From an uncultured Candidatus Saccharibacteria bacterium (GTDB lineage Bacteria > Patescibacteriota > CAZHWT01), in assembly GCA_964554805.1 (NCBI GenBank), contig CAZKPX010000002.1:113889-177888 (forward strand): DNA of 64,000 bases, in the 5' to 3' direction. Below the pieces are notes generated by a model that saw only the letters and a program-made list of their open reading frames with translations, had not been told where the DNA came from and ran no database searches. This document shows, one piece after another, positions 5,461-58,914 of the stretch. The translations under genes were made by a program, and so were the position numbers. Position 1 is the first letter of the stretch; every line of letters starts with the position of its first letter.

Positions 5461-7074
5461 ATGAAAAATAAATGGTGGCAGGATCGGGTAGTCTATCAAA
5501 TTTACCCAAGAAGCTTTTGCGATTCTAATAATGATGGCGTTGGCGACATAGCAGGCATAATCTCTAAGCTTGATTATCTAAAGAGTTTAGGCGTTGGAGC
5601 AGTGTGGTTGTCTCCTGTTTATAAATCCCCTAATCGAGATTTTGGCTATGATATCTCTGATTATTGTGATGTTAATCCTGAATTCGGTAGCTTGAAGGAT
5701 ATGAAAAAGTTGTTTGCCGAGTCGGCCAAGAGAGATATTAAAGTCATTATGGATTTGGTGGTAAATCATACTTCTGATCAGCATCCTTGGTTTCAGTCAG
5801 CTCTTAAAGATCCCACATCTCCCTATCGAGATTATTATATTTGGCAACCACCTAAAGTTGGTGATGGCGACTATGCGCTGCCTAACAACTGGTCGTCTGT
5901 TTTTACCGGTCCAGCTTGGACTCTGGATGAGGCATCGGATGAGTTTTATCTACATCTGTTTACAAAGCATCAACCTGATTTGAATTTTGACAATCCTAAG
6001 GTGGTCGAAGAAGTAAAGAATATTATGAAGTTTTGGCTGGACATGGGGGCCGCTGGGTTCCGGTGTGATGTTATTAATTTAATTCACAAGCAATCATTTG
6101 AAAACGGCCGAAGACGGATATTGTCGACTGGTAGCGAGCATTATGTATCGGCTCCCGGCAGCCATGCGTTGCTCAGACAGTTTAATAGCGAGGTCTGGCA
6201 GCCATATGGTGCTTTTACGGTGGGCGAGGCTCATCAGGCAACTATCGAAGATATTAAGTCTTTTACTAAGGGTGATGAGCTGACCACGGCATTTTCATTT
6301 GAGCATATGATCCCGAAAGTGGGTTATCAGGCGGATAAGGTAAAGCGTCAATTGATTCGACAGCAAACTCAACTAGATTGGCCGACGGTATTTTTTGAGA
6401 ACCATGATGGCTTGCGATCGGTGTCTCGGTTTGGCAATGACTCAAAGTTTCATTATGAGTCAGCCACCATGATTGCCACTTTAAATCTGACTCTGCGGGG
6501 AACAGCCTTTATCTACCAAGGACAAGAAATAGCCATGACAAATGCGCCCTTTCGCAATATTGGGCAAATTCAAGACATAATTACGCTATCGATCTATAAA
6601 ATTATGTTACGATATGGTATTCCCAGTCGGCTAGCATTTAAGTTGGTTATGTTCGTATGTCGCGATCATTCTCGGACACCGGTTCAGTGGACTGATGAGG
6701 CCAATGGTGGTTTTAGTCAATGCGAGCCATGGTTAATGGCAAATCCCAACTATCCTTTGATTAACGTGGCTCAGCAGATGACTGATCCTCAATCGGTGTG
6801 GCATTTCTATCAACATTTGCTGGCTGTTCGTCAACAGACTGCAGCTTGGCGCACCGGCTCAATCAATTTTTTGCCCTCACCTAAAGGAGTGATGATATAC
6901 GATCGACAGGAGAAATCTAATCATTATCGAATAGTGGTTAACATGGAGGGCAGGGCTAGAAAGCTGGATCTGAGCCTGAAAGGTTTGGTAGTTAGCTCGA
7001 ATTACCAACGCAAGAGTTGCAGTCGAGTAGATCGTCTGCAGCCGTTTGAAGCTCTGGTCGTTGAGTTGGCTTAG
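5461..7074 (+). CDS. Glycoside hydrolase family 13 alpha-glucosidase / oligo-1,6-glucosidase-like
   Basis: VVYQIYPRSFCDSNNDGVGDIAGI...AVWLSPVYKSPNRDFGYDISDY...DLVVNHTSDQHPWF: classic GH13 subfamily motifs. Confidence 0.85.
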   Translation: MKNKWWQDRVVYQIYPRSFCDSNNDGVGDIAGIISKLDYLKSLGVGAVWLSPVYKSPNRDFGYDISDYCDVNPEFGSLKDMKKLFAESAKRDIKVIMDLVVNHTSDQHPWFQSALKDPTSPYRDYYIWQPPKVGDGDYALPNNWSSVFTGPAWTLDEASDEFYLHLFTKHQPDLNFDNPKVVEEVKNIMKFWLDMGAAGFRCDVINLIHKQSFENGRRRILSTGSEHYVSAPGSHALLRQFNSEVWQPYGAFTVGEAHQATIEDIKSFTKGDELTTAFSFEHMIPKVGYQADKVKRQLIRQQTQLDWPTVFFENHDGLRSVSRFGNDSKFHYESATMIATLNLTLRGTAFIYQGQEIAMTNAPFRNIGQIQDIITLSIYKIMLRYGIPSRLAFKLVMFVCRDHSRTPVQWTDEANGGFSQCEPWLMANPNYPLINVAQQMTDPQSVWHFYQHLLAVRQQTAAWRTGSINFLPSPKGVMIYDRQEKSNHYRIVVNMEGRARKLDLSLKGLVVSSNYQRKSCSRVDRLQPFEALVVELA

Positions 7075-23869: not shown

Positions 23870-24298
23870 TTAATCAAGGCTCTGGGTGGAGAGAAAGTCT
23901 TCTTGGGTAAGCTTGCCGGCTAGAAATTGTTTAACCTTGTCGAGCACTTGATGAGGCAGGAGGTCGGCTTTCAGGATGTAGCCGTTGGCGCCTATTTTAA
24001 AGGCTTCTCTAATGATTGACTCTTGGCCAAGATTGGTCAGGAGGATAATTGGCGTATTAATTGCGCGCGAATCAGGAAGACGCAGCTGCCGAAGAACATC
24101 AATGCCTGTTTTCTTGGGCAGCATGATATCTAGCAGGATAAGCTGAACATTGGTTGACTCGGCTACTTCAATGCCTTGTTCACCATCTTCGGCTTGAATC
24201 ATAGAAAAGCCGTCTTTGGCAAAGACATGGACATACATTTCTCTCAGAAACGTATCGTCTTCAACAATGAGTATTGGTAGTTGGCTCGTATTGTTCAT
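23870..24298 (-). CDS. Stand-alone response-regulator receiver domain protein (CheY-like, no DNA-binding domain)
   Basis: ILIVEDD...LILLDIMLPKKTGIDVLRQLR receiver motifs; 142 aa. Confidence 0.8.
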   Translation of the reverse strand: MNNTSQLPILIVEDDTFLREMYVHVFAKDGFSMIQAEDGEQGIEVAESTNVQLILLDIMLPKKTGIDVLRQLRLPDSRAINTPIILLTNLGQESIIREAFKIGANGYILKADLLPHQVLDKVKQFLAGKLTQEDFLSTQSLD

Positions 24299-24343: not shown

Positions 24344-26542
24344 TTATTTCTGAGGGCGGCCGAAGATTGGCACTTTGGCACCTTTGGGGGCAAGCGGGAC
24401 AGTGAAGGTAAAGGTCGATCCTTTGCCGACTTCTGACTCAACCCAGATTTTGCCATGGTGTGCATCGACGACAGCTTTGGAAATAAACAGGCCTAGGCCA
24501 GTACCTTTCGAGCCCATAGCCAGGCTACTTTGGACCCGATAGAACTTGGTGAACATGCGCGGAATAGATGAGGATGGGATGCCTTGGCCATTGTCTGAGA
24601 CAGAGATGGCTACACCATGAACGGTTTTTTTGGCTTCAATGCGAACCCAACCATTCTCTGGCTTAGAGTAGTTGATAGCATTGGCGGTTAAGTTGGTGAG
24701 CACTTCGGCGATGCGGAAATTATCTGCCAGGATAAGGGGCAATGGCCTGTCTGGCTGGATGAATTCTAGTTTTATTAAACGCTGCTTGGCCACTTCTTGC
24801 AAGTTGGTCAGAGCGTTGGTTATCATTGTTTCTGGTTGGAGTGGGGCGAGGTCGAGCTTGAGTGATCCCCGTTCAATGCGTGACAGGTTGAGCAGGTTTT
24901 CAACAAGTGAACTCAGTTGGCTACTGCTGATAACTGATCTTTCCAGGTAGGTTTGTTCATCCTTGTTTAGCTTGGACATGGATTCAAACTCCAGAATAGA
25001 TAGGTATCCGCGCAGGGCTGTTAAGGGGGTGCGGAGTTCGTGGGCAGCCATCGATACAAAGTCCAGCTTCATGGCTTCTAGCTCTTTTTCTTGAGTCATA
25101 TCGTGGAAGCTAACTACCCAGCCTTGCTGCTTATCATTGTCTTCCGTGATTGGCGCAACTGATATGGATAGCAACCGTACGCCCTGGTCAGTGTTGAACT
25201 GCAGGCCTTCGTTTCTGAGGCGATTTTTGTATCGGGTTGATTGATTGCTGTACTCTTCTAAAGATACTAGTTGGTCATTATTATAGAATTGTAGGGCTGC
25301 ATCAGCTGGACGATCAATGATGGCATCGGCTTTGATATCGGTGATTCGTTCAGCGGCTTTGTTGAATAAGATGATATTGCCAAGACTATCTGTCGCAAAA
25401 ACGCCACTCGTTAACGACTGCAACAGCGTAGAATGGCGGTCCTTCTCTAAGCTGAGCGTGGCATTTGTTTGCTCGAGCGTTCTCTGTCGCTCCTTTAGTT
25501 GCAGAGCCATAGTGTTAAAGGCCTGAGACAAATCTTGCAGCTCATCGCCAGTTGTAATATCCGTTCGGTGGTTAAACTGACCTTTCTGAAAGTGTCTAGC
25601 TTGGGTTGTTAATTGAGCAATTGGCTTGGCGATCTTGTTGCTTAATATTAGTGCAATGGCTAATAGTATGAGGATGGCTAGTCCCAGTCCGACTAACAAG
25701 ATATTGTTGGTCAGCGTGATGCGGCCAAAAGCTTGGTTTTGTGGTTGCTCCAAGGCAACAACCCAGTCTAAGCCAGGTAGGATGGCGCTGGCTGCTACTA
25801 CTTCGGTATTGCTTGGATTGACATAATAATGCTGACGATCATCTAGATTATTGACAGCCAAGGCTATGATGGGTGATTGGCTGAAATCTTGATACTGGAC
25901 CTGTGATTTATTTGGGTGGTAGATGACTGATCCGTCTTTGGCAATAATGTAGAAGACACTAGAATTTTGAAGGTGATGCCGACTGTCAGTCTGCAATGAA
26001 GACAGGATGGACAATTCGACTTGCCCCTTAACGATTGTATTTATTTGGCCTTGAGCGTTGCGTGCCGGGGTATATATATCGACATAGTACGTGCTTTGAT
26101 CTTGGTATATGGGCGAGACGGCGCGAGAGCCATTTTGGGCACTGGCAAGCGAAGTGGATGTTTGCTCGGTTGATAGAGGAGCTATTGAGCCTTGGCCTCT
26201 CTGGTACTTATGCTGCTGGCGACCTTGGGCGTCCAGTATGGTGATGGCGTTGGTGTGCGGTGAGCTATGCATGGCTGCTTCTGATAACCGCAGATGGTCA
26301 GTCGGACCAGAGGCTGCTAGCTGATTGGCTAGGCTGGTATGAGTTTGATATATCGTTTGCAGGTAGTCATTTAAACGCTGGGTGTTATTGTCGACCTGGA
26401 TTTGCAAGGCTCTGACCTGCTGTTGTCGCAGGTATTGATCATTTAGTTGCATAATGACTAGTATCAGTCCTGCCGAAATGATGATAATCGACAAAAAGCT
26501 GACTAGTATTTTGCTACGGAGGTTGAGTGGTAAGCGATTCAT
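24344..26542 (-). CDS. Sensor histidine kinase (TM - periplasmic region - HAMP - PAS - HisKA - HATPase)
   Basis: H-box AAHELRTPL; N, G1 and G2 boxes (DNGQGIP, GTGLGLFISK); start MNRLPL overlaps the stop of the upstream SBP gene (ATGA). Confidence 0.85.
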   Translation of the reverse strand: MNRLPLNLRSKILVSFLSIIIISAGLILVIMQLNDQYLRQQQVRALQIQVDNNTQRLNDYLQTIYQTHTSLANQLAASGPTDHLRLSEAAMHSSPHTNAITILDAQGRQQHKYQRGQGSIAPLSTEQTSTSLASAQNGSRAVSPIYQDQSTYYVDIYTPARNAQGQINTIVKGQVELSILSSLQTDSRHHLQNSSVFYIIAKDGSVIYHPNKSQVQYQDFSQSPIIALAVNNLDDRQHYYVNPSNTEVVAASAILPGLDWVVALEQPQNQAFGRITLTNNILLVGLGLAILILLAIALILSNKIAKPIAQLTTQARHFQKGQFNHRTDITTGDELQDLSQAFNTMALQLKERQRTLEQTNATLSLEKDRHSTLLQSLTSGVFATDSLGNIILFNKAAERITDIKADAIIDRPADAALQFYNNDQLVSLEEYSNQSTRYKNRLRNEGLQFNTDQGVRLLSISVAPITEDNDKQQGWVVSFHDMTQEKELEAMKLDFVSMAAHELRTPLTALRGYLSILEFESMSKLNKDEQTYLERSVISSSQLSSLVENLLNLSRIERGSLKLDLAPLQPETMITNALTNLQEVAKQRLIKLEFIQPDRPLPLILADNFRIAEVLTNLTANAINYSKPENGWVRIEAKKTVHGVAISVSDNGQGIPSSSIPRMFTKFYRVQSSLAMGSKGTGLGLFISKAVVDAHHGKIWVESEVGKGSTFTFTVPLAPKGAKVPIFGRPQK

Positions 26543-27417
26543 AGTTGATGGAGCCATTTTTGCTGCAAGCTCTGCAGAACGCCTTTTCGGTGCAGGGAGG
26601 TTATAGCACTGTTCACTATGTCCGCCAGTTGCCACTGACTTTTAGCTGTGGCAATGACGTATGATTCTTCCACAAGTGCTGGTGAAGCGACCCGAAGCTG
26701 TTCATTGGCGGCTACCAGTTGATTGGCTGTATAGAGATCTATTAAAGCCAAATCGGTTTGAGCGTTGGTGAGTAGACTGGTGAGCTGGTCTGTGTCGGTG
26801 GAAGTTTTTACTTTGGATGAGGCAGTGATGGTTTTTGCAAATTCATGATTGATACTGTCTTTCACAACAGCCACGACTTTATCTTTGATATCACTAGCGG
26901 AGTCGATATTCGGGGCATTCTTGAGTGTTATGGCAACCTGGCTAACTGAAACATATGGTTGTGATAGGTTGAGCATTTCTTGACGATATGCGGTGGGAGA
27001 TAAGCCAGCTATTAAGAGGTTGACCTGGCCTTGATCCAAAATATTGGTTGCACCAGAATCGCCAGGGCTGACCGCTTGGGAGGGCTTTATCTTTTTGAAT
27101 GTAATTGGAGTGCCTATCTCTACCGCGAGTGCTTTGGCTAGGTCTATTTCGTAGCCGCTCAGTTGGCCGCTTTTTTCAAGGGTAAATGGTGGTCTGTCCG
27201 CCACAATACCGACTATCAGCTGACCTTGTTGGCGGATAAGAGCAATCTCCTGGCTGGCATGATTGGGCTCTTGGGGTAAGCTAGAGGTTAGCCGATTGGC
27301 CACTAGGGCACTGGTGCTGGCCAGCAGTAGCACAATTAAGACAATTGTTAGTAATGTTAGTCGTTTGCTGCTGGAAGTGATTGATTTGACTGGCTTAGTC
27401 AGAGTGCGAAAAGGCAT
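26539..27417 (-). CDS. Membrane-anchored family-3 substrate-binding (SBP_bac_3-like) protein; likely periplasmic sensing partner of the kinase
   Basis: 292 aa, N-terminal TM, ...GQLIVGIVADRPPFTLEKSGQLSGYEIDLAKALA... typical of family 3 solute-binding domains; translationally coupled to the HK. Confidence 0.65.
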   Translation of the reverse strand: MPFRTLTKPVKSITSSSKRLTLLTIVLIVLLLASTSALVANRLTSSLPQEPNHASQEIALIRQQGQLIVGIVADRPPFTLEKSGQLSGYEIDLAKALAVEIGTPITFKKIKPSQAVSPGDSGATNILDQGQVNLLIAGLSPTAYRQEMLNLSQPYVSVSQVAITLKNAPNIDSASDIKDKVVAVVKDSINHEFAKTITASSKVKTSTDTDQLTSLLTNAQTDLALIDLYTANQLVAANEQLRVASPALVEESYVIATAKSQWQLADIVNSAITSLHRKGVLQSLQQKWLHQL

Positions 27418-27473
27418 AGTTGGGGCATTTTGTTAGTCTATGTCATTTTCACTGTTAGATGCTTGGTTGTCAA

Positions 27474-27867
27474 CCTGTCCGCCCACAGGGCGGAACCAGG
27501 GCAGGTTGGATGCGATGGTTGCGCGCCACCGCGCGCGATCTATATTACGCATGCAACTTACCATGCCACAGGGCGGAACCAGGCAGGTTGGATGCGATGG
27601 TTGCGCGCCACCGCGCGCGAATTTATACTACGCATGCAATCTGTCCGCCCAAGGGCGGAACCGGGCAGGTTGGATGCGATGGTTGCGCGCCGCCGCGCGC
27701 GATCTATATTGCGCATGCAACTTACCACGCCATAGGGCGGAACCAGGGCAGGTTGGATGCGATTATTGTTTGCCGCCGCAAACTATTGTTACTATTTTCC
27801 AGCTAAGGCTGGAAAACGCATGCAATCTATCATGCCGTTGGCGGAACTAGGGCGGGTGGGGTGTGAG
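27474..27867. repeat. Tandem array (about 4.7 copies) of an ~82-bp G+C-rich, hairpin-dense unit; the 4th copy carries an internal substitution/insertion
   Basis: Units ...gggcggaaccagggcaggttggatgcgatggttgcgcgccaccgcgcgcgatctatattacgcatgcaa... repeat head-to-tail; each has tccgccc/gggcgga and gcgcgc/gcgcgc hairpins. Confidence 0.85.
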
Positions 27868-28031
27868 ATTTTGGACCTTGATAGTAACATACACATTTCC
27901 AAGGAGCGTATCTTTTGGTTGGGTGTAGTTTGCCAGCGATTGTGCTCGCCAAGTCTGTGCTCTAAGTTGCTGGTACTGCCTATATGGTAGTTATCATTTA
28001 GTTCGCTTGGTAGGATATAAAAATAAGCCAT
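27792..28031 (-). pseudogene. Small GIY-YIG nuclease-family gene, frameshifted and 3'-truncated where it runs into the tandem repeat array
   Basis: N-terminus MAYFYILPSELNDNYHIGSTSNLEHRLGEHN matches GIY-YIG; an alternate frame gives KRYAPWKCVCYYQGPKSH (compare RRPWKLVYYEEF...), then the sequence is repeat-derived. Confidence 0.5.
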
Positions 28032-28070
28032 CCAAGTATTTGGACGGCTTATTTATGATTAAAGTCTATA

Positions 28071-28236: not shown

Positions 28237-28330
28237 CCAACAACTGGCTTGGCAGGGTGTAAGTTATAAGAGTGAGCTGTGGCGCTCATTTGGCTCTTAC
28301 CACTTACACGCTGCCAATCAGTTTTCAATT
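28237..28330. other. Long imperfect hairpin (about 66 nt; arms ggcagggtgtaagt...acttacacgctgcc) between tRNA genes
   Basis: Inverted-repeat arms read directly; does not fold as a tRNA. Confidence 0.3.
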
Positions 28331-28337
28331 TAAGAAC

Positions 28338-28480
28338 TATTTGGTGGAGCTAGAAGGACAACTCTCCGCCGGCTGGCGGATCGTGACGGTAGTGCCAGTT
28401 ATTAAAATCGATGTTTTAACAACTTCTTCCTACCTTCGACCTTAATCGCTGGCAGCGATAGGTTCTCGATATCTGGCTAC
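28338..28480 (-). other. tRNA 3'-half-like duplicate (…GTCCTTCTAGCTCCACCA) fused to a structured ~120-nt segment; 30-bp direct repeat with the tRNA-Val 3' flank
   Basis: ttaagaactatttggtggagc[t/c]agaaggac occurs at 28328-28357 and 28488-28517; no matching 5' acceptor strand, so it is not an intact tRNA. Confidence 0.35.
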
Positions 28481-28500
28481 ACAAAATAATTAAGAACTAT

Positions 28501-28576
<76 letters not shown>

Positions 28577-28920: not shown

Positions 28921-29100
28921 TTCTGGTGCCGAGGAAAGTAACGTTCGCTTTGCTCTCGGGCTATAGTCACCTTCTATTCGGCTCGTTGGCCGAATAGAAG
29001 GTGACTATAGATGCCCCTACAGCTTGAAGCTGTTGAAGGTTATTACCTGCCCTGACTACCAGGTGTATGTTACCCACCAAGTGAGTAAAATACACCTGGT
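28921..29100. repeat. Left copy of a 180-bp perfect direct repeat (begins tggtgccgaggaaag, mimicking a tRNA-Leu 3' end); contains a 22-bp-stem hairpin
   Basis: Identical by eye, base for base, to 40077-40256. Confidence 0.85.
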
Positions 29101-29196
29101 GCCCTAGATGACTCATCACCATTCGAACACTTTATGGAGTGGCTTAATAGTTTATACCAAGCTTTTCAAAGTGAGGATGATCACTAGAGTCTAAAT

Positions 29197-38685: not shown

Positions 38686-40119
38686 TTGGACGAATCAGTT
38701 GATTCTGATTGTATATTTAGGGAAGAAGGACGCTCAGCCAAGACAATTGCTGGTCGGCCGAAGCTGCTTGATTTACTCAATTACTGCCGGAAGAATAAGA
38801 AGATTATTGATAGTGTTATTGTTTATCGCTTGGATCGCATCTCCAGACAAACGGCAGACTATCTCACAATTAGAACTAAATTAGCCGAGAGCGGTATTAA
38901 TCTCATATCTGCCACCGAGCCGACAGGTAACAGCCCTGCTGAAAAGATGATTGAGACAATCTTGGCCAGCTTTGCTCAGTTGGATAATGACGTAAAGAGC
39001 GAGCGGTCTAAAAACGGCCTTCAGGCTCGCTTCAAAGCTGGCTTGAAGTCTTCTTCTGTGCCGATTGGATACCTGGCTAAAAATGGTTTTGCCATCAAAG
39101 ACCCTGATACTTTTGAATATATAAAGCATGGTTGGGAAATGTTAGCCACAGGTAAAGACAGTCTGCAGGATGTGATGCACTATCTTAATGAGAATGGTGT
39201 TCGGATGCGGCAAAAAGGTAAAGCAAACCTCATCAGCAAGCAATCTGTGTCAAGAATCTACAGAAACAAATTTTACTGCGGCATATTGGTATCTAAAAAG
39301 TATGGCATGGAAGTTAGCGGGCAGCATCAGCCGATGATCAATGAAAGTATGTTTTATGCGGTGCAGGCCATGATAGATAATCGCGGTCCAAATAGGTCAG
39401 GACACAAGCTTAGATATATTCTGGATCACCCTGAATTCCCCTTGCGGCGCTTTATGATGTGCGGTATATGCGATAAGCCTATGACAGGTGGATTTAGCAA
39501 GGGTAAAAACCAGCGATATGGCTATTATTTCTGCGCTAATCGTTGTGGTGCACCATCATCAATCAATATAAACAATATGGAAGTGTCGGTTATAAGTAAT
39601 CTCAAAGACCTTGAACCAACCGCTCGGTTGTTTGAGAAGGTTTCAAAAAGCCTGCGCCAAAAATACATCTCACGAATGGGCAAATTTCAAACAGCGGCTC
39701 AGGACAAGGTAGCAGTCATTGAAGCAGTTAAAGAAACACGACAATCACTTATCGAAAAGAACCTAGCTGGTTTATATTCTGATGAGTTATTCAGGGAGCA
39801 ACTAGCGGTTCTAGACCAAAAACTAGCTGATGCGTACGCGGCACAATCACGAGCCAATCTGGCAAATTACAATTATGAGGTGTTATTTAAGTTTATAGAA
39901 GAAAAATTGGCACATATTGCCAAGACATACGAGGAATCAACGCTATCTCAGAAAAAAGCATTGCTGTGTTCGATATTCCCTTCTGGTATGCGCTGGATGT
40001 ACCCAGGCATTTCGAACACTGAGATTTCACCGTGGTATCAAGTAATTCAAGGTGTTAATAAGCTTGATGTCACACTTGGTGCCGAGGAAAGTAACGTTCG
40101 CTTTGCTCTCGGGCTATAG
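38686..40119 (+). CDS. Large serine recombinase (resolvase/recombinase domain + zinc-ribbon); N-terminal catalytic motif missing or degraded
   Basis: ...IFREEGRSAKTIAGRPKLLDLL...VIVYRLDRISRQ... (resolvase core), recombinase domain, C..C...C..C ribbon, coiled-coil tail; called ORF begins with TTG; upstream frames carry only a corrupted RVS-like remnant with stop and frameshift. Confidence 0.7.
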   Translation: MDESVDSDCIFREEGRSAKTIAGRPKLLDLLNYCRKNKKIIDSVIVYRLDRISRQTADYLTIRTKLAESGINLISATEPTGNSPAEKMIETILASFAQLDNDVKSERSKNGLQARFKAGLKSSSVPIGYLAKNGFAIKDPDTFEYIKHGWEMLATGKDSLQDVMHYLNENGVRMRQKGKANLISKQSVSRIYRNKFYCGILVSKKYGMEVSGQHQPMINESMFYAVQAMIDNRGPNRSGHKLRYILDHPEFPLRRFMMCGICDKPMTGGFSKGKNQRYGYYFCANRCGAPSSININNMEVSVISNLKDLEPTARLFEKVSKSLRQKYISRMGKFQTAAQDKVAVIEAVKETRQSLIEKNLAGLYSDELFREQLAVLDQKLADAYAAQSRANLANYNYEVLFKFIEEKLAHIAKTYEESTLSQKKALLCSIFPSGMRWMYPGISNTEISPWYQVIQGVNKLDVTLGAEESNVRFALGL

Positions 40120-40256
40120 TCACCTTCTATTCGGCTCGTTGGCCGAATAGAAGGTGACTATAGATGCCCCTACAGCTTGAAGCTGTTGAAGGTTATTACC
40201 TGCCCTGACTACCAGGTGTATGTTACCCACCAAGTGAGTAAAATACACCTGGTGCC
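40077..40256. repeat. Right copy of the 180-bp direct repeat; overlaps the recombinase 3' end and abuts tRNA-Leu(GAG)
   Basis: Identical to 28921-29100. Confidence 0.85.
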
Positions 40257-44260: not shown

Positions 44261-45892
44261 CTACTTCTGTGATGGTTTTTGCTTGCCTGGTAGGAAAGCT
44301 TTTTTGCGTAAGTTTTTGTGATAGGTAATGGCGAAGCGGTGGGCTTCGTCGCGGAGGCGTTGGATCATGAATAGGGCCTGACTACCTCGGGCTAGGCGGA
44401 TGGTTGTGTATTCAGCTTGGGTGATGGTTTGTGTTTCTAAGTCAGTATCTGATTTAGCTATGGCTCCATGAGCTCCGGAACGCTTAGGGGAGCCGAGTTC
44501 ATGCGACGAGCGACGGGCGACGGGCGACGAGTTTAGACCAGAACCATTAGTGTCCTGCCTCCCTGAGCCTGTCTTGAGCATTAGTTCCTCCTCTCTTTTG
44601 GTCATTCCTGCAACTGGAATATTCAGACCAAGCTGACCCATGACTTCAATTGCTCCGCTTAGCTGGCCCTTGCCGCCGTCGATAATTATGAGATTTGGTG
44701 AATCAGAAAACGATATATCATTACTTCGGAGAGAATCCTGGATTCTAGATGCTGGGGTCTTTGGCTCATTTTTGTCGCCCGTCGCCCGTCGCTCGTCACT
44801 GGAAGTGACCTTTAGTCTCTTGAATCGACGCGTCAACACCTCTTTGATCATGGCCACATCATTGGGAACATTTTCCTGTTTGATGCGGAATTTACGATAA
44901 TTGGACTTGGCGGCCTCCCCTTCGATGAAAACTACCATTGAGCCGACTGAATATTCGCCCATGGTGTTGGAGATGTCGTAGCACTCGATGCGATGCAGGG
45001 GGGAAAGAACCTCGGAGGTTGGAGGTTGGAGGTTGTTGAAATATGGACTTAGTGACTGAGAGAGTTCTTCTAGGCCTTGTTGACGTCGGTCGGCCATGAG
45101 CTCCGGGTTCTGAAGGTAGTCGTCTGGAGCGATTGATTGATTGGCTAGATAGATGAGGTTGTCTAGTTGCTGCTTGAGTTCGGCTGCTTTTTCGAAGTTT
45201 AACTGTTTGGCTTGAGCTTGCATGTCTTTTTGGATTTCCTCCATTAAGCCCAAGCGCTTACCTTCAAAAAAATGCACTAATTGGAATACCTGTCGTCGGT
45301 ACTCTTTTTTATCCCAAACCTCATCCTTATTGACTTGGCCAAGATTTAAATTGTAGTAAAAAAATGACTGACCAGTTCGCCGTCTACCTTGAGGCACGGG
45401 AGGTCTATGGGCTAAGTAGGGAAAAACTTTGCGAAGATAGCGCAGAGTTTGACGGACTACTCTTCCCGACGGATAAGGGCCAAAATAGGTAGCTTTGGTA
45501 TCGAGGGGCAAATCAGTTTGTCGGCAGGTAGAGATGGTTGGATACTCCTGATAGGTAGTAATCTTGACATAGACGTGCGACTTGTCGTCTTTGAGGATAA
45601 TGTTATACGGTGGTTGATGCTGCTTAATGAGGTTGGCTTCTAAAATCAGAGCGTCTATCTCGCTGGCTACAATGATTGTTTCAAGCCGGTCTATTTGACT
45701 GACCAAGGCCTTTGTTTTTGGTGAAGTGTGCTTATCGGCGAAATAAGACTTGACCCGATTTTTTAAATTCTTAGCTTTGCCAACATATAACAATTGCCCC
45801 TGCTGATCGTAGTAGCGATAAATGCCGGGGTCTGTGGGTAGATTGGTCAGTTGTTTGGCAAGCTGATCGTTCATGGTTTTCATGTAACTCAA
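44261..45892 (-). CDS. uvrC: Excinuclease ABC subunit C (short form, no C-terminal HhH region) with low-complexity insertions
   Basis: N-terminal GIY-YIG (GIYRYYDQQGQLLYVGKAKNLKNRVKSYF), LIIIDGGKGQL...IPVAGMTKREEEL, C-terminal QRLRDEAHRFAITYHKNLRKK; start codon uncertain (TTG in the track, ATG at 45883 or 45874). Confidence 0.8.
   Translation of the reverse strand: MSYMKTMNDQLAKQLTNLPTDPGIYRYYDQQGQLLYVGKAKNLKNRVKSYFADKHTSPKTKALVSQIDRLETIIVASEIDALILEANLIKQHQPPYNIILKDDKSHVYVKITTYQEYPTISTCRQTDLPLDTKATYFGPYPSGRVVRQTLRYLRKVFPYLAHRPPVPQGRRRTGQSFFYYNLNLGQVNKDEVWDKKEYRRQVFQLVHFFEGKRLGLMEEIQKDMQAQAKQLNFEKAAELKQQLDNLIYLANQSIAPDDYLQNPELMADRRQQGLEELSQSLSPYFNNLQPPTSEVLSPLHRIECYDISNTMGEYSVGSMVVFIEGEAAKSNYRKFRIKQENVPNDVAMIKEVLTRRFKRLKVTSSDERRATGDKNEPKTPASRIQDSLRSNDISFSDSPNLIIIDGGKGQLSGAIEVMGQLGLNIPVAGMTKREEELMLKTGSGRQDTNGSGLNSSPVARRSSHELGSPKRSGAHGAIAKSDTDLETQTITQAEYTTIRLARGSQALFMIQRLRDEAHRFAITYHKNLRKKAFLPGKQKPSQK
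44507..44530. repeat. 24-bp repeat (gacgagcgacgggcgacgggcgac) inside uvrC; inverted partner at 44770-44795
   Basis: Exact reverse-complement copies read directly; both translate in-frame (SSDERRATGDKNE and SSPVARRSSHE). Confidence 0.7.
44770..44795. repeat. Inverted partner of the 24-bp uvrC-internal repeat
   Basis: tcgcccgtcgcccgtcgctcgtcact is the reverse complement of 44507-44530. Confidence 0.7.
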
Positions 45893-57157: not shown

Positions 57158-57775
57158 ATGAATTCAGTTATTGATGATCTTGAGCAGGTCGACCTGGGCC
57201 TGTTTAAGGCTGAGTCAGAATTGAGTGGCGTTTTAATACGTGGCGGTGCGATGCAGGACGCTGTGCTGGATCGTGCTGAAATTAAGGAGTGTTGTTTCGA
57301 TAAAGTTCGATTGACATCGTGTGATGCTTCTAAAATTTATCTGAAGAAAAGCTCTTTTATAGGATGTGATTTGAGCAATACTCGGCTTAATGATGGAAAA
57401 CTGACCGAGGTTGTCTTTGAGGATTGTAAATTGGTGGGAGTTGGGTTTAACGAGTGCGCCTTGGATACTATAGTATTCAAAAACTGCCTGATGAATTTGA
57501 GCCAGTTTAGTGCTGTTACGGCTAAGAAGTTGACCTTTATTAATTGTCAGCTAGAACAGGCTTATTTTGATCAAGCCAAGATGCCTGGCTCGAAGCTACT
57601 TGATTGTAACTTGAATAAGGCAGACTTCTCTCAGGCAGTGATTATAAAATCGGACATGCGCCGCAGTACCATTGAAGGCATCCGAGTATCTCCGAGTCAG
57701 CTGGGAAATGTGATTGTTAACCCCGATCAAGCCTTGTATCTGGCTAGGCTGATGGGCTTACAGATTGAGTTCTAG
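57158..57775 (+). CDS. Pentapeptide-repeat protein
   Basis: Tandem A(D/N)LxX-type pentapeptides (...CDLSNTRLNDGKLTEVVFEDCKLVGVGFNECALDTIVFKNC...); internal Met start preferred over the track start at 57116. Confidence 0.7.
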   Translation: MNSVIDDLEQVDLGLFKAESELSGVLIRGGAMQDAVLDRAEIKECCFDKVRLTSCDASKIYLKKSSFIGCDLSNTRLNDGKLTEVVFEDCKLVGVGFNECALDTIVFKNCLMNLSQFSAVTAKKLTFINCQLEQAYFDQAKMPGSKLLDCNLNKADFSQAVIIKSDMRRSTIEGIRVSPSQLGNVIVNPDQALYLARLMGLQIEF

Positions 57776-57968
57776 ATTGGGCCTTTGGTTGAGTTTTGGC
57801 TAGACGCTTGGAGCGCAATTTGTGGCTGGTATAGTACATTTGGTGGCTGAAACATAAAACCTGGCCATCGCATCGCTGCTTAGACTTCTGAGCTAAGTCA
57901 GGCGAAATGGTTTTGAAACACTGTTTGCAATGATATATGTTTGTCACTGGAGTAATATATTGCTTCAT
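57744..57968 (-). CDS. Small Cys-rich (zinc-ribbon-like) hypothetical protein
   Basis: 74 aa; CKQC...C..C; overlaps the 3' end of the pentapeptide gene, so may be spurious. Confidence 0.2.
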   Translation of the reverse strand: MKQYITPVTNIYHCKQCFKTISPDLAQKSKQRCDGQVLCFSHQMYYTSHKLRSKRLAKTQPKAQSRTQSVSPSA

Positions 57969-58192
57969 ATCTTAAGGGGAACTCTCGTCGTTGCCCGCCT
58001 CTTTCTTGATAGCACTAATGTATACATAAGTGATAGTTCATTGCAACAGACAAGCTCAGCTATCTCAGATATTCGCGATGCCTCATGCCCTTGACTTGCA
58101 CGCGTAAAGCCAAGCATGATTGTTTTTTATGCCGCTGTAGCGCGGCGAAAATCGCATCCAACATGTCCAGTCCGAAACATAGTTTTGGCATG

Positions 58193-58250
58193 TTGACATT
58201 CGGGTAATTTATGGGTAAAGTAATTATACGAACAAAATACGAAGCACATA
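58193..58250 (+). promoter_or_regulatory. Putative lexA promoter (ttgaca-17 bp-taaagt) with candidate operators: GAAC-N7-GAAG direct repeat and a 12-bp palindrome ATTAGTACTAAT
   Basis: Sequence read directly 45-105 bp upstream of the lexA ATG; operator identity is inference. Confidence 0.3.
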
Positions 58251-58296: not shown

Positions 58297-58914
58297 ATGG
58301 CCGTTACTTTATACAAAAAACAACGACAGATTGTTGACTATATTGAATCTTTTATTCGAACCAATGGCTACTCCCCTACTCTGCAGGAGATAGCTGATTC
58401 TATCGGTGTCAAAAGCCTAGCTACAGTCCACGAGCATCTCAGTGCTTTGGCTAAGAAGGGTGTTATTCGTAAAGTGGCTGGCGAGGTGCGTGGCATTGAG
58501 TTGGCGGAGCAAAGAATGGGCCATGTTATGGATGGTGTGGAAGTGCCTTTGTTTGGCTATATTGCAGCTGGCTCACCTATTGAAGCCATTGAGAGTCAGA
58601 GCGAGACGGTGACCATACCGGGAGATATGGTCGGCCGTAAGCGCACGTATGTGTTGCAAGTACGTGGCAAGAGTATGATTGAGGCCTGTATTGATGACGG
58701 GGATCACGTGGTGATTGAAGAAGCTAATACTGCTAACAACGGTGATATTGTGGTAGCCTTGCTTGATAACGAGTTTGCTACGCTCAAGAGATACTTTAAG
58801 GAAAAAGATCATATTCGCTTAGAGCCAGCTAATAGTACTATGAGTCCGATTCGAGCTAAGAATGTGACCGTTCAAGGTAAAGTGGTGGGTGTTATCCGTC
58901 GGTATACTCACTAG
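58297..58914 (+). CDS. lexA: LexA repressor (S24 peptidase family)
   Basis: N-terminal wHTH (LTLYKKQRQIVDYI...GYSPTLQEIAD), Ala-Gly cleavage site region, Ser...Lys dyad (VRGKSM ... KRY). Confidence 0.85.
   Translation: MAVTLYKKQRQIVDYIESFIRTNGYSPTLQEIADSIGVKSLATVHEHLSALAKKGVIRKVAGEVRGIELAEQRMGHVMDGVEVPLFGYIAAGSPIEAIESQSETVTIPGDMVGRKRTYVLQVRGKSMIEACIDDGDHVVIEEANTANNGDIVVALLDNEFATLKRYFKEKDHIRLEPANSTMSPIRAKNVTVQGKVVGVIRRYTH

Follow-up and report, generated by a model that had tools for sequence, protein, structure and literature searches.

What is the G+C-rich tandem array that lies between the promoter of a two-component operon and a tRNA cluster in this Saccharibacteria contig, and does its repeat unit occur anywhere else? 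The window, that is the whole stretch of DNA analysed here, comprises 64 kb of a 270-kb contig. The original prediction had placed in it about 4.7 head-to-tail copies of an 82-bp unit, and both repeat detection and alignment bear this out. Tandem Repeats Finder, run on the 64-kb window, reported a period of 82 at 27483-27763, with 3.4 copies, 87% matches and a score of 453, the scores of all other arrays in the window being at most 52. By unit alignment the array covers 27466-27877 and holds approximately 4.7 copies, all head-to-tail and in the same orientation. It is made of three good units of 81-83 nt (u1 to u3, pairwise identity 82-89%), a 105-nt unit with a replaced core (u4) and a degenerate fifth (u5), so that the units decay toward the GIY-YIG end of the array. 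The coordinates of all features are collected in Table 1.

The G+C content of the array is 0.587 against 0.453 for the window, in agreement with the predicted excess over the surroundings; by unit, it is 0.59-0.64 in u1-u3 and only 0.49-0.50 in u4 and u5. The unit types alternate, u1 being closest to u3 and the 5' part of u2 matching that of u4. From this alternation, a 164-bp dimer was probably what was duplicated as the array grew. As the units are contiguous, without unique spacers, the array does not have the organisation of a CRISPR. The Rfam scans were null as well: at gathering scores nothing besides tRNAs was detected in the whole window, and at E <= 10 the best hits in 27380-28070 had E-values of 2.4-8.9, far below the gathering scores. 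It thus holds true that the array looks like neither a CRISPR nor an rRNA, nor like a member of an Rfam family.

Table 1. Coordinates of the array, of the solitary copy and of their neighbours in the window
Feature	Position	Strand	Remarks
Receiver-only response regulator	23870-24298	-	no DNA-binding domain
HAMP-PAS histidine kinase	24344-26635	-	
Family-3 solute-binding protein (SBP)	26539-27417	-	first operon gene
Promoter of the SBP/kinase/receiver operon	27445-27473	-	sigma-70-type; TTGACA 27473-27468, 17-nt spacer, GAAAAT 27450-27445
u1	27466-27546	+	81 nt; covariance model match 104 bits
u1 helix A	27471-27477 with 27502-27508		CAACCTG with CAGGTTG
u1 hairpin B	27478-27484 with 27488-27494		TCCGCCC with GGGCGGA
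u1 helix C	27510-27514 with 27548-27552		ATGCG with CGCAT
u1 hairpin D	27521-27526 with 27531-27536		GCGCGC with GCGCGC
u2	27547-27629	+	83 nt; hairpin B weakened (CCATGCC); helix A retained via U-G pair
u3	27630-27710	+	81 nt; 89% identity to u1
u4	27711-27815	+	105 nt; core replaced; extra hairpin TTTTCCAGC-TAAG-GCTGGAAAA inserted
u5	27816 to ~27877	+	degenerate; ~57-64% identity to other units; model match 64 bits
GIY-YIG pseudogene	27878-28031	-	one frameshift near 27935; truncated after about model position 57/78
Hairpin with T runs on both sides	28021-28054		likely terminator of tRNA operon
tRNA operon Leu, Val, Phe, Gly	28885-28071	-	
TTGAC, left copy of 5-bp direct repeat flanking the solitary copy	58091-58095	+	
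Solitary diverged copy	58096-58202	-	30 kb from array; covariance model
Helices of the solitary copy			A CAACATG/CATGTTG; B CCAAAAC/GTTTCGG; D GCCGC/GCGGC; C ATGCG/CGCGT
lexA promoter	58193-58221	+	TTGACA 58193-58198, 17-nt spacer, TAAAGT 58216-58221
lexA	58297-58914	+	LexA_DNA_bind + Peptidase_S24

We first consider whether the array could be coding. All three plus-strand frames are open over the array for 300-400 nt, with ORFs of 101, 136 and 115 aa, and since 82 = 3 x 27 + 1 the frame would rotate by one base per unit, allowing in principle a repeat protein encoded across all three frames. None of these ORFs matches a Pfam family even at E <= 1, and neither a ribosome-binding site nor a promoter was found for them. 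Among 1.84 billion representative proteins the 136-aa ORF retrieved three weak matches and no real homologue; all three are tandem-repeat proteins, two of which read like translations of other DNA repeats. The solitary copy described below carries no matching ORF. We consider a repeat protein extremely improbable, and the reading frames behave as the overlapping, frame-shifting pseudo-ORFs that had been announced.

To look for further copies, a covariance model (R1) was built from the five array units only and run over the whole window with filters off. It detected one locus besides the array, at 58097-58202 on the minus strand, over the full model length with 35.3 bits and an E-value of about 5e-7. 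With a rebuilt model (R2), no third locus was found within the 64-kb window. The 12-mer GTTGGATGCGAT is exact in both the solitary copy and the array, and its 5 occurrences in the window are all located there. The description of the unit has to be revised in view of this diverged full-length copy, which shows that the unit is not confined to the array. A match to a known family of extragenic palindromic repeats, widespread in the genome, had been named as an outcome that would refute the original prediction. The second copy brings the finding closer to that outcome, with two loci in 64 kb, but the family is not a known one.

The second copy also bears on another account of the array, namely a purely local tandem duplication without family or function. 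Slippage duplication of hairpin-rich DNA is common and the decay of the units toward the GIY-YIG end would fit it, but a full-length diverged copy with compensatory changes lies 30 kb away, which implies that the unit existed as a discrete element before the array or apart from it. We thus hold a local accident to be very unlikely.

The solitary copy sits between the back-to-back promoters of lexA and of a zinc-ribbon ORF (57744-57968, minus strand), upstream of both. This ORF of 74 aa, divergent from lexA, has a CxxC...C...C pattern and is uncalled in the Logan annotation. Counterparts of 66-113 aa occupy the same place in four relatives, and a conserved promoter motif of its own precedes it (TTGCAA/T, 15-16 nt, TATAYA). 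The ORF may thus represent a small zinc-ribbon gene with a link to the SOS response.

The lexA locus could be compared between genomes. uvrB being only 2 kb from the element, the contigs of four relatives (L116, L119, L121 and L123), whose UvrB proteins are 82-84% identical, were fetched; the nearest named UvrB proteins are those of Chloroflexota, at 63-65% identity. Synteny and the lexA promoter TTGACATTCGGGT...ATACAAATAAAAGGCGAA are kept in 4 out of 4 relatives, and the element was not found in any of the four contigs with the covariance model, filters off. The spacer between the divergent-promoter motif tGCAACAnACAAG and the lexA -35 box measures 15 nt in L119, 17 nt in L123 and 47 nt in L121; it consists of about 140 nt of unrelated sequence in L116 and is about 135 nt long in the window. 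The promoter being kept and the element missing in all four relatives, the -35 box is ancestral and the element was added to it: the comparison of these genomes shows the lexA-side copy to be a lineage-specific insertion, acquired since the split from the nearest sampled relatives. The unrelated sequence that L116 (GCA_964597145.1) carries in place of the element spans 6413-6553. The spacer between the lexA and divergent promoters seems to be a recurrent insertion site.

The borders of the solitary copy are flanked by TTGAC on both sides, the right copy (58193-58197) being the first five bases of the -35 box of the lexA promoter. These flanks may be a target duplication, a coincidence having a chance of roughly 1 in 10; under such a duplication the empty lexA site would read ...TTGACATTCGGG with a single TTGAC. 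On the array side GTCAA is visible at the promoter side only (27469-27473), with none at the far end. By analogy with IS200/IS605 elements, insertion may take place next to a fixed pentanucleotide, GTCAA on the element strand, a rule read from one and a half junctions; the element's own end, TGCAA, is similar to it. Terminal inverted repeats are absent: the ends TTGCACGCG... and ...TTTTGGCATG are not complementary, and the inverted repeats are internal.

Within the window the element thus occupies at least two loci; the two seen are both intergenic and both touch a TTGACA -35 box. At the array, the -35 box of the operon overlaps the first bases of u1 (TGTCAA/C, the slash marking the junction). 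The element-promoter junctions are alike and in the same relative orientation, CAGG/TTGACA for the SBP operon and CATG/TTGACA for lexA. Each of the two visible copies is thus set right against a -35 box, in one case that of the SOS repressor gene. Should the rest of the genome follow this rule, one would be dealing with a promoter-targeting insertion, which would be unusual.

This arrangement would fit a cis-acting DNA site of promoter control, either a protein platform or a supercoil-absorbing cruciform, the array then tuning the two-component operon. The common orientation of the two copies relative to the promoters they abut agrees with such a role, as does the location of the solitary copy between divergent promoters, where negative supercoiling is inferred to accumulate from the twin-domain model. 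The 8-mer AACAAAAT is found 40 and 41 nt on the gene side of the two promoters, and BOX modules and Correia elements have been reported to change the expression of adjacent genes (PMC3049150, PMC3184786). Nevertheless, four relatives conserve the lexA promoter without the element, so that this promoter does not require it. In the operon that flanks the array the response regulator lacks a DNA-binding domain, no candidate binding protein was found, and two sites are too few for showing a selected position. We hold a control site of this kind to be unlikely.

We then analyzed the folding of the units. Four helices are possible per unit: helix A (CAACCTG/CAGGTTG), which is long-range and encloses hairpin B, and helix C (ATGCG/CGCAT), which encloses hairpin D and the A+T-rich tail. 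Moreover, CGCATGCAAC is nearly complementary to GTTGGATGCG, so that each GTTG has a possible partner on either side, giving a chain of alternative helices along the array. Two perfect hairpins had been attributed to every copy. For D (GCGCGC-CACC-GCGCGC) this holds in u1-u3; u4 retains the hairpin by three double substitutions as GTTTGC-CGCC-GCAAAC, and this hairpin and the inserted one (Table 1) are those already described for its replaced core. For B (TCCGCCC-ACA-GGGCGGA) it does not, the hairpin being intact in u1 and u3 only: the 5' arm reads CCATGCC in u2, CCACGCC in u4 and TCATGCC in u5, with 3-4 pairs left.

Within the array 82% of the cells pair, and 4 pairs change on both sides compared with 1.0 +/- 0.9 in shuffles. 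With the solitary copy added, 10 of the 27 pairs change on both sides (shuffles, 3.3 +/- 1.5; slid controls, 2-7), a count for which the alignment of the solitary copy was itself fitted to the covariance model. The aligned copies show that all four helices persist from one copy to the next through two-sided changes. In helix A, every one-sided change replaces C by T, which results in U-G pairs on the plus strand that would be A-C on the opposite one. The folding energy of the array as RNA was -207.7 kcal/mol (z -6.0) for the plus strand and -164.6 (z -1.3) for the minus strand; with DNA parameters the values were -107.7 (z -5.1) and -91.6 (z -2.9), respectively. The solitary copy, which is A+T-richer (G+C 0.48), folds unremarkably, with z-scores of -0.7 for its own strand and -1.8 for the opposite one. 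The asymmetry between strands that is seen in the array is therefore not shared by the whole family.

These features raise the possibility that each unit is a gene, or a module, for a structured non-coding RNA transcribed from the plus strand, the solitary copy being a second gene on the minus strand. The array would then yield either a series of small RNAs or a single RNA of about 600 nt with its end at the 28021-28054 hairpin. The compensatory changes that keep the four helices, the U-G pairs of helix A and the strong strand asymmetry of the array folding energy all point in this direction. In addition, the plus strand carries terminator-like hairpins with a T-containing tail in u1-u4 (6 sites versus 2.2 +/- 1.5 expected), and a perfect TATAAT, on the same strand as the solitary copy, precedes it by 20 nt. 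However, a two-hexamer promoter of the sigma-70 type was not found on the element strand at either locus, and promoters of this type are clearly in use in this lineage. The solitary copy does not support an RNA either, for its own strand folds no better than shuffled sequences and slightly less well than the other strand, one of its helices needs a G-U pair on the opposite strand, and its hairpin D is followed by an A run instead of a U run. The element is also missing at the orthologous site in four relatives and has no Rfam match. We judge an RNA gene unlikely. The missing element-strand promoter, the position of the lexA copy outside the flanking transcripts, its absence in relatives and its unremarkable folding favour a DNA element over an RNA gene. 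Intrinsic terminators acting on the operon strand were considered and dropped.

The explanation that we prefer is that the array is a non-coding, interspersed, structured repeat of about 82-105 nt, specific to the lineage and amplified about five-fold at one insertion site. We give it an even chance of being correct; its interspersed nature rests on two loci in one 64-kb window of the 270-kb contig. Such an element would probably spread at the DNA level, its single strand folding into a form that an enzyme from another part of the genome recognises, on the model of REP sequences with their RAYT transposases and of the hairpin ends of IS200/IS605 elements. This mode of spread would explain the conserved hairpins, the missing terminal inverted repeats and the partial strand bias, and the compensatory changes would mean that the hairpins matter for propagation. 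The array itself would have grown by replication slippage or by unequal exchange between units. If the operon is affected at all, this would only be a side effect of having some 400 bp of cruciform-prone DNA just upstream of its promoter.

It had been predicted that the array overwrote the 3' end of a GIY-YIG gene. The ORF 28031-27792 matches positions 1-50 of the 78 of the Pfam GIY-YIG model, and repairing the frameshift lifts the score from 29.2 to 43.9 bits and extends the match to positions 1-57 of 78. The homology stops at 27878, exactly where u5 fades, and this coincidence of the two ends supports the replacement of the 3' end of the gene by the array. The missing part would have been removed on arrival of the array or during its growth. 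A link between the element and the GIY-YIG nuclease was dropped, the solitary copy having no GIY-YIG neighbour.

No orthologous locus is available for comparison on the array side, because the genes there lack close homologues. For the solute-binding protein no homologue above 30% identity was found among 5.8 billion proteins, for the kinase none above 38% in the species genomes and for the neighbouring phosphatase-family gene none above 42%. Judging from these searches, the stretch with the solute-binding protein, the kinase and the phosphatase-family gene is lineage-specific. For the proteins at the window edges and for the HTH gene nothing is on record in other assemblies. Within the neighbouring tRNA operon, tRNA-Phe and the intact tRNA-Val are separated by a tRNA-Val remnant (28330-28395, minus strand), in which the D-arm, the last 30 nt (97% identical to 28490-28519) and the downstream flank are left, the middle being deleted.

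We compared the element with known families of bacterial repeats. The BOX elements of Streptococcus pneumoniae have the organisation boxA-(boxB)n-boxC, in which the number of boxB modules varies by gain and loss (PMC3049150). Like them, the present element is a small structured intergenic repeat, with a module that is single at some loci and arrayed at others, often beside promoters: one unit is found at 58096-58202 and about 4.7 at 27466-27877. It differs in its unit of 82 nt instead of about 45. Distinct terminal A and C modules could not be clearly made out: the 5' flanks of the element share just AACAAAAT and the -35 box, both owned by the promoters, and the 3' flanks are not clearly alike. 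No known element was found to be similar in sequence, the comparison with BOX being one of organisation.

The MIRU/VNTR minisatellites of mycobacteria are 40-100-bp intergenic tandem units with G+C-rich internal inverted repeats; their filled sites have short direct repeats, and the homologous sites of relatives lack the unit (PMC3184786). The array resembles them by its tandem intergenic period of 82, and the site of the solitary copy is empty in four relatives. The first MIRU locus, that of Supply et al. 1997, was reportedly described inside the senX3-regX3 two-component operon. MIRUs, however, are located within operons, are co-transcribed and contain small ORFs overlapping the neighbouring genes, whereas the array lies upstream of the operon promoter and has its open frames on the opposite strand.

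REP sequences and BIMEs are G+C-rich imperfect palindromes, extragenic, single or clustered, with neither terminal inverted repeats nor coding capacity of their own (PMC3184786). Hairpins B and D share with REP palindromes, which measure 20-40 nt, a G+C-rich composition and an intergenic location. A genome with REPs has tens to hundreds of them, against two loci in the 64 kb analysed here. In BIMEs, by contrast, REP orientation alternates, while the array units are all head-to-tail; the unit moreover combines two different hairpins with two long-range helices, and no RAYT is encoded in the window. Non-autonomous, hairpin-ended derivatives of IS200/IS605, for which IS608 and ISDra2 serve as reference, are comparable by a hairpin near each end and the lack of terminal inverted repeats; they also fold in a strand-specific manner, a bias that here is evident in the array and not in the solitary copy. 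No TnpA, the Y1 (HUH) transposase of such elements, was seen in the window, and a conserved central 12-mer and long-range helices are not features of that family. Finally, Correia elements, the MITEs of Neisseria, are intergenic, about 100-150 nt long, often located 5' of genes, and can affect promoters (PMC3184786, PMC3049150). They end in terminal inverted repeats of 26 bp and supply promoter boxes themselves, whereas the present element has no such ends and is younger than the lexA -35 box.

A 26-base unit pattern had no match in one genome per GTDB species or in the JGI metagenomes, and an 18-base pattern gave 21 single matches in viral contigs, taken as chance since none was tandem. The family-level pattern CAACNTG-N18-28-CANGTTGGATGCGAT retrieved nothing in viral contigs and 27 stretches in metagenomes, almost all within coding sequence and with model scores of only 12-20 bits; among these, L102 and L090/L098 were looked at and not accepted as members. 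A blastn search of the array against plasmid and phage records gave no match. Among ORFs of at least 150 aa, no transposase, RAYT or IS200/IS605 gene was found in the 64-kb window.

What would be new under the preferred reading is a further lineage-specific family, in addition to the many interspersed structured repeats and minisatellites already described in bacteria. A bolder version, which we hold to be a long shot, is that of a mobile DNA of a new type, folded as a single strand, which inserts beside TTGAC, the core of -35 boxes, forms head-to-tail arrays by repeated self-targeting at its own TGCAA end and not by slippage, and remodels promoters, or else of a new four-helix RNA motif on the plus strand. 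If true, a TTGAC-inserting element would systematically land on promoters and remodel them, here those of lexA and of the two-component operon.

In practical terms the array is likely to be a variable-number locus useful for telling strains apart, and it marks a fragile spot of the MAG, at which short-read assemblies break. A short-read contig of the same organism (SRR16798009) ends inside u1, as repeated DNA would cause it to do (L001 1-60 corresponds to window 27529-27470). A second contig from the same data (L115) starts at about 58241, 39 nt beyond the solitary copy. Short-read assemblies of this genome thus tend to break at or near the element.

Two other identities were considered for the array and rejected. 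A replication origin or terminus was suggested by a GC skew sign change near 28 kb, but the negative skew is confined to an 11-kb island. Integron attC sites are imperfect palindromes of 57-141 nt bounded by RYYYAAC ... GTTRRRY core sites, with cassettes and an IntI integrase alongside. Of the two core sites, GTTRRRY is matched by GTTGGAT, whereas TGTCAAC/ATGCAAC agrees with RYYYAAC at no more than 5-6 of the 7 positions. Moreover, the palindrome measures about 40 nt, and there are no cassettes and no tyrosine integrase in the window.

The sole recombinase in the window is a large serine recombinase 11 kb from the array. It belongs to the negative-GC-skew island, which also contains a 1316-aa protein, a DUF5677 protein and the HTH gene and is bracketed by perfect 180-bp direct repeats (28924-29103 and 40077-40256, 11,153 bp apart; recombinase, 38686-40119). 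Each repeat holds a 50-nt palindrome and a short copy of the tRNA-Leu 3' end. The bracketed island is probably an element integrated at tRNA-Leu.

Tandem repeats of another kind occur in uvrC (44261-45892, minus strand), whose reading frame holds heptanucleotide repeats at 44498-44528, 44774-44804 and 45014-45035. GCGACGA x4 and its complement GTCGCCC x3.4 form a 31-nt inverted pair 245 nt apart, and GGAGGTT x3 is also present. The match to the UvrC RNase H domain takes 226 residues to cover 152 positions of the model, a difference suggestive of an in-frame insertion.
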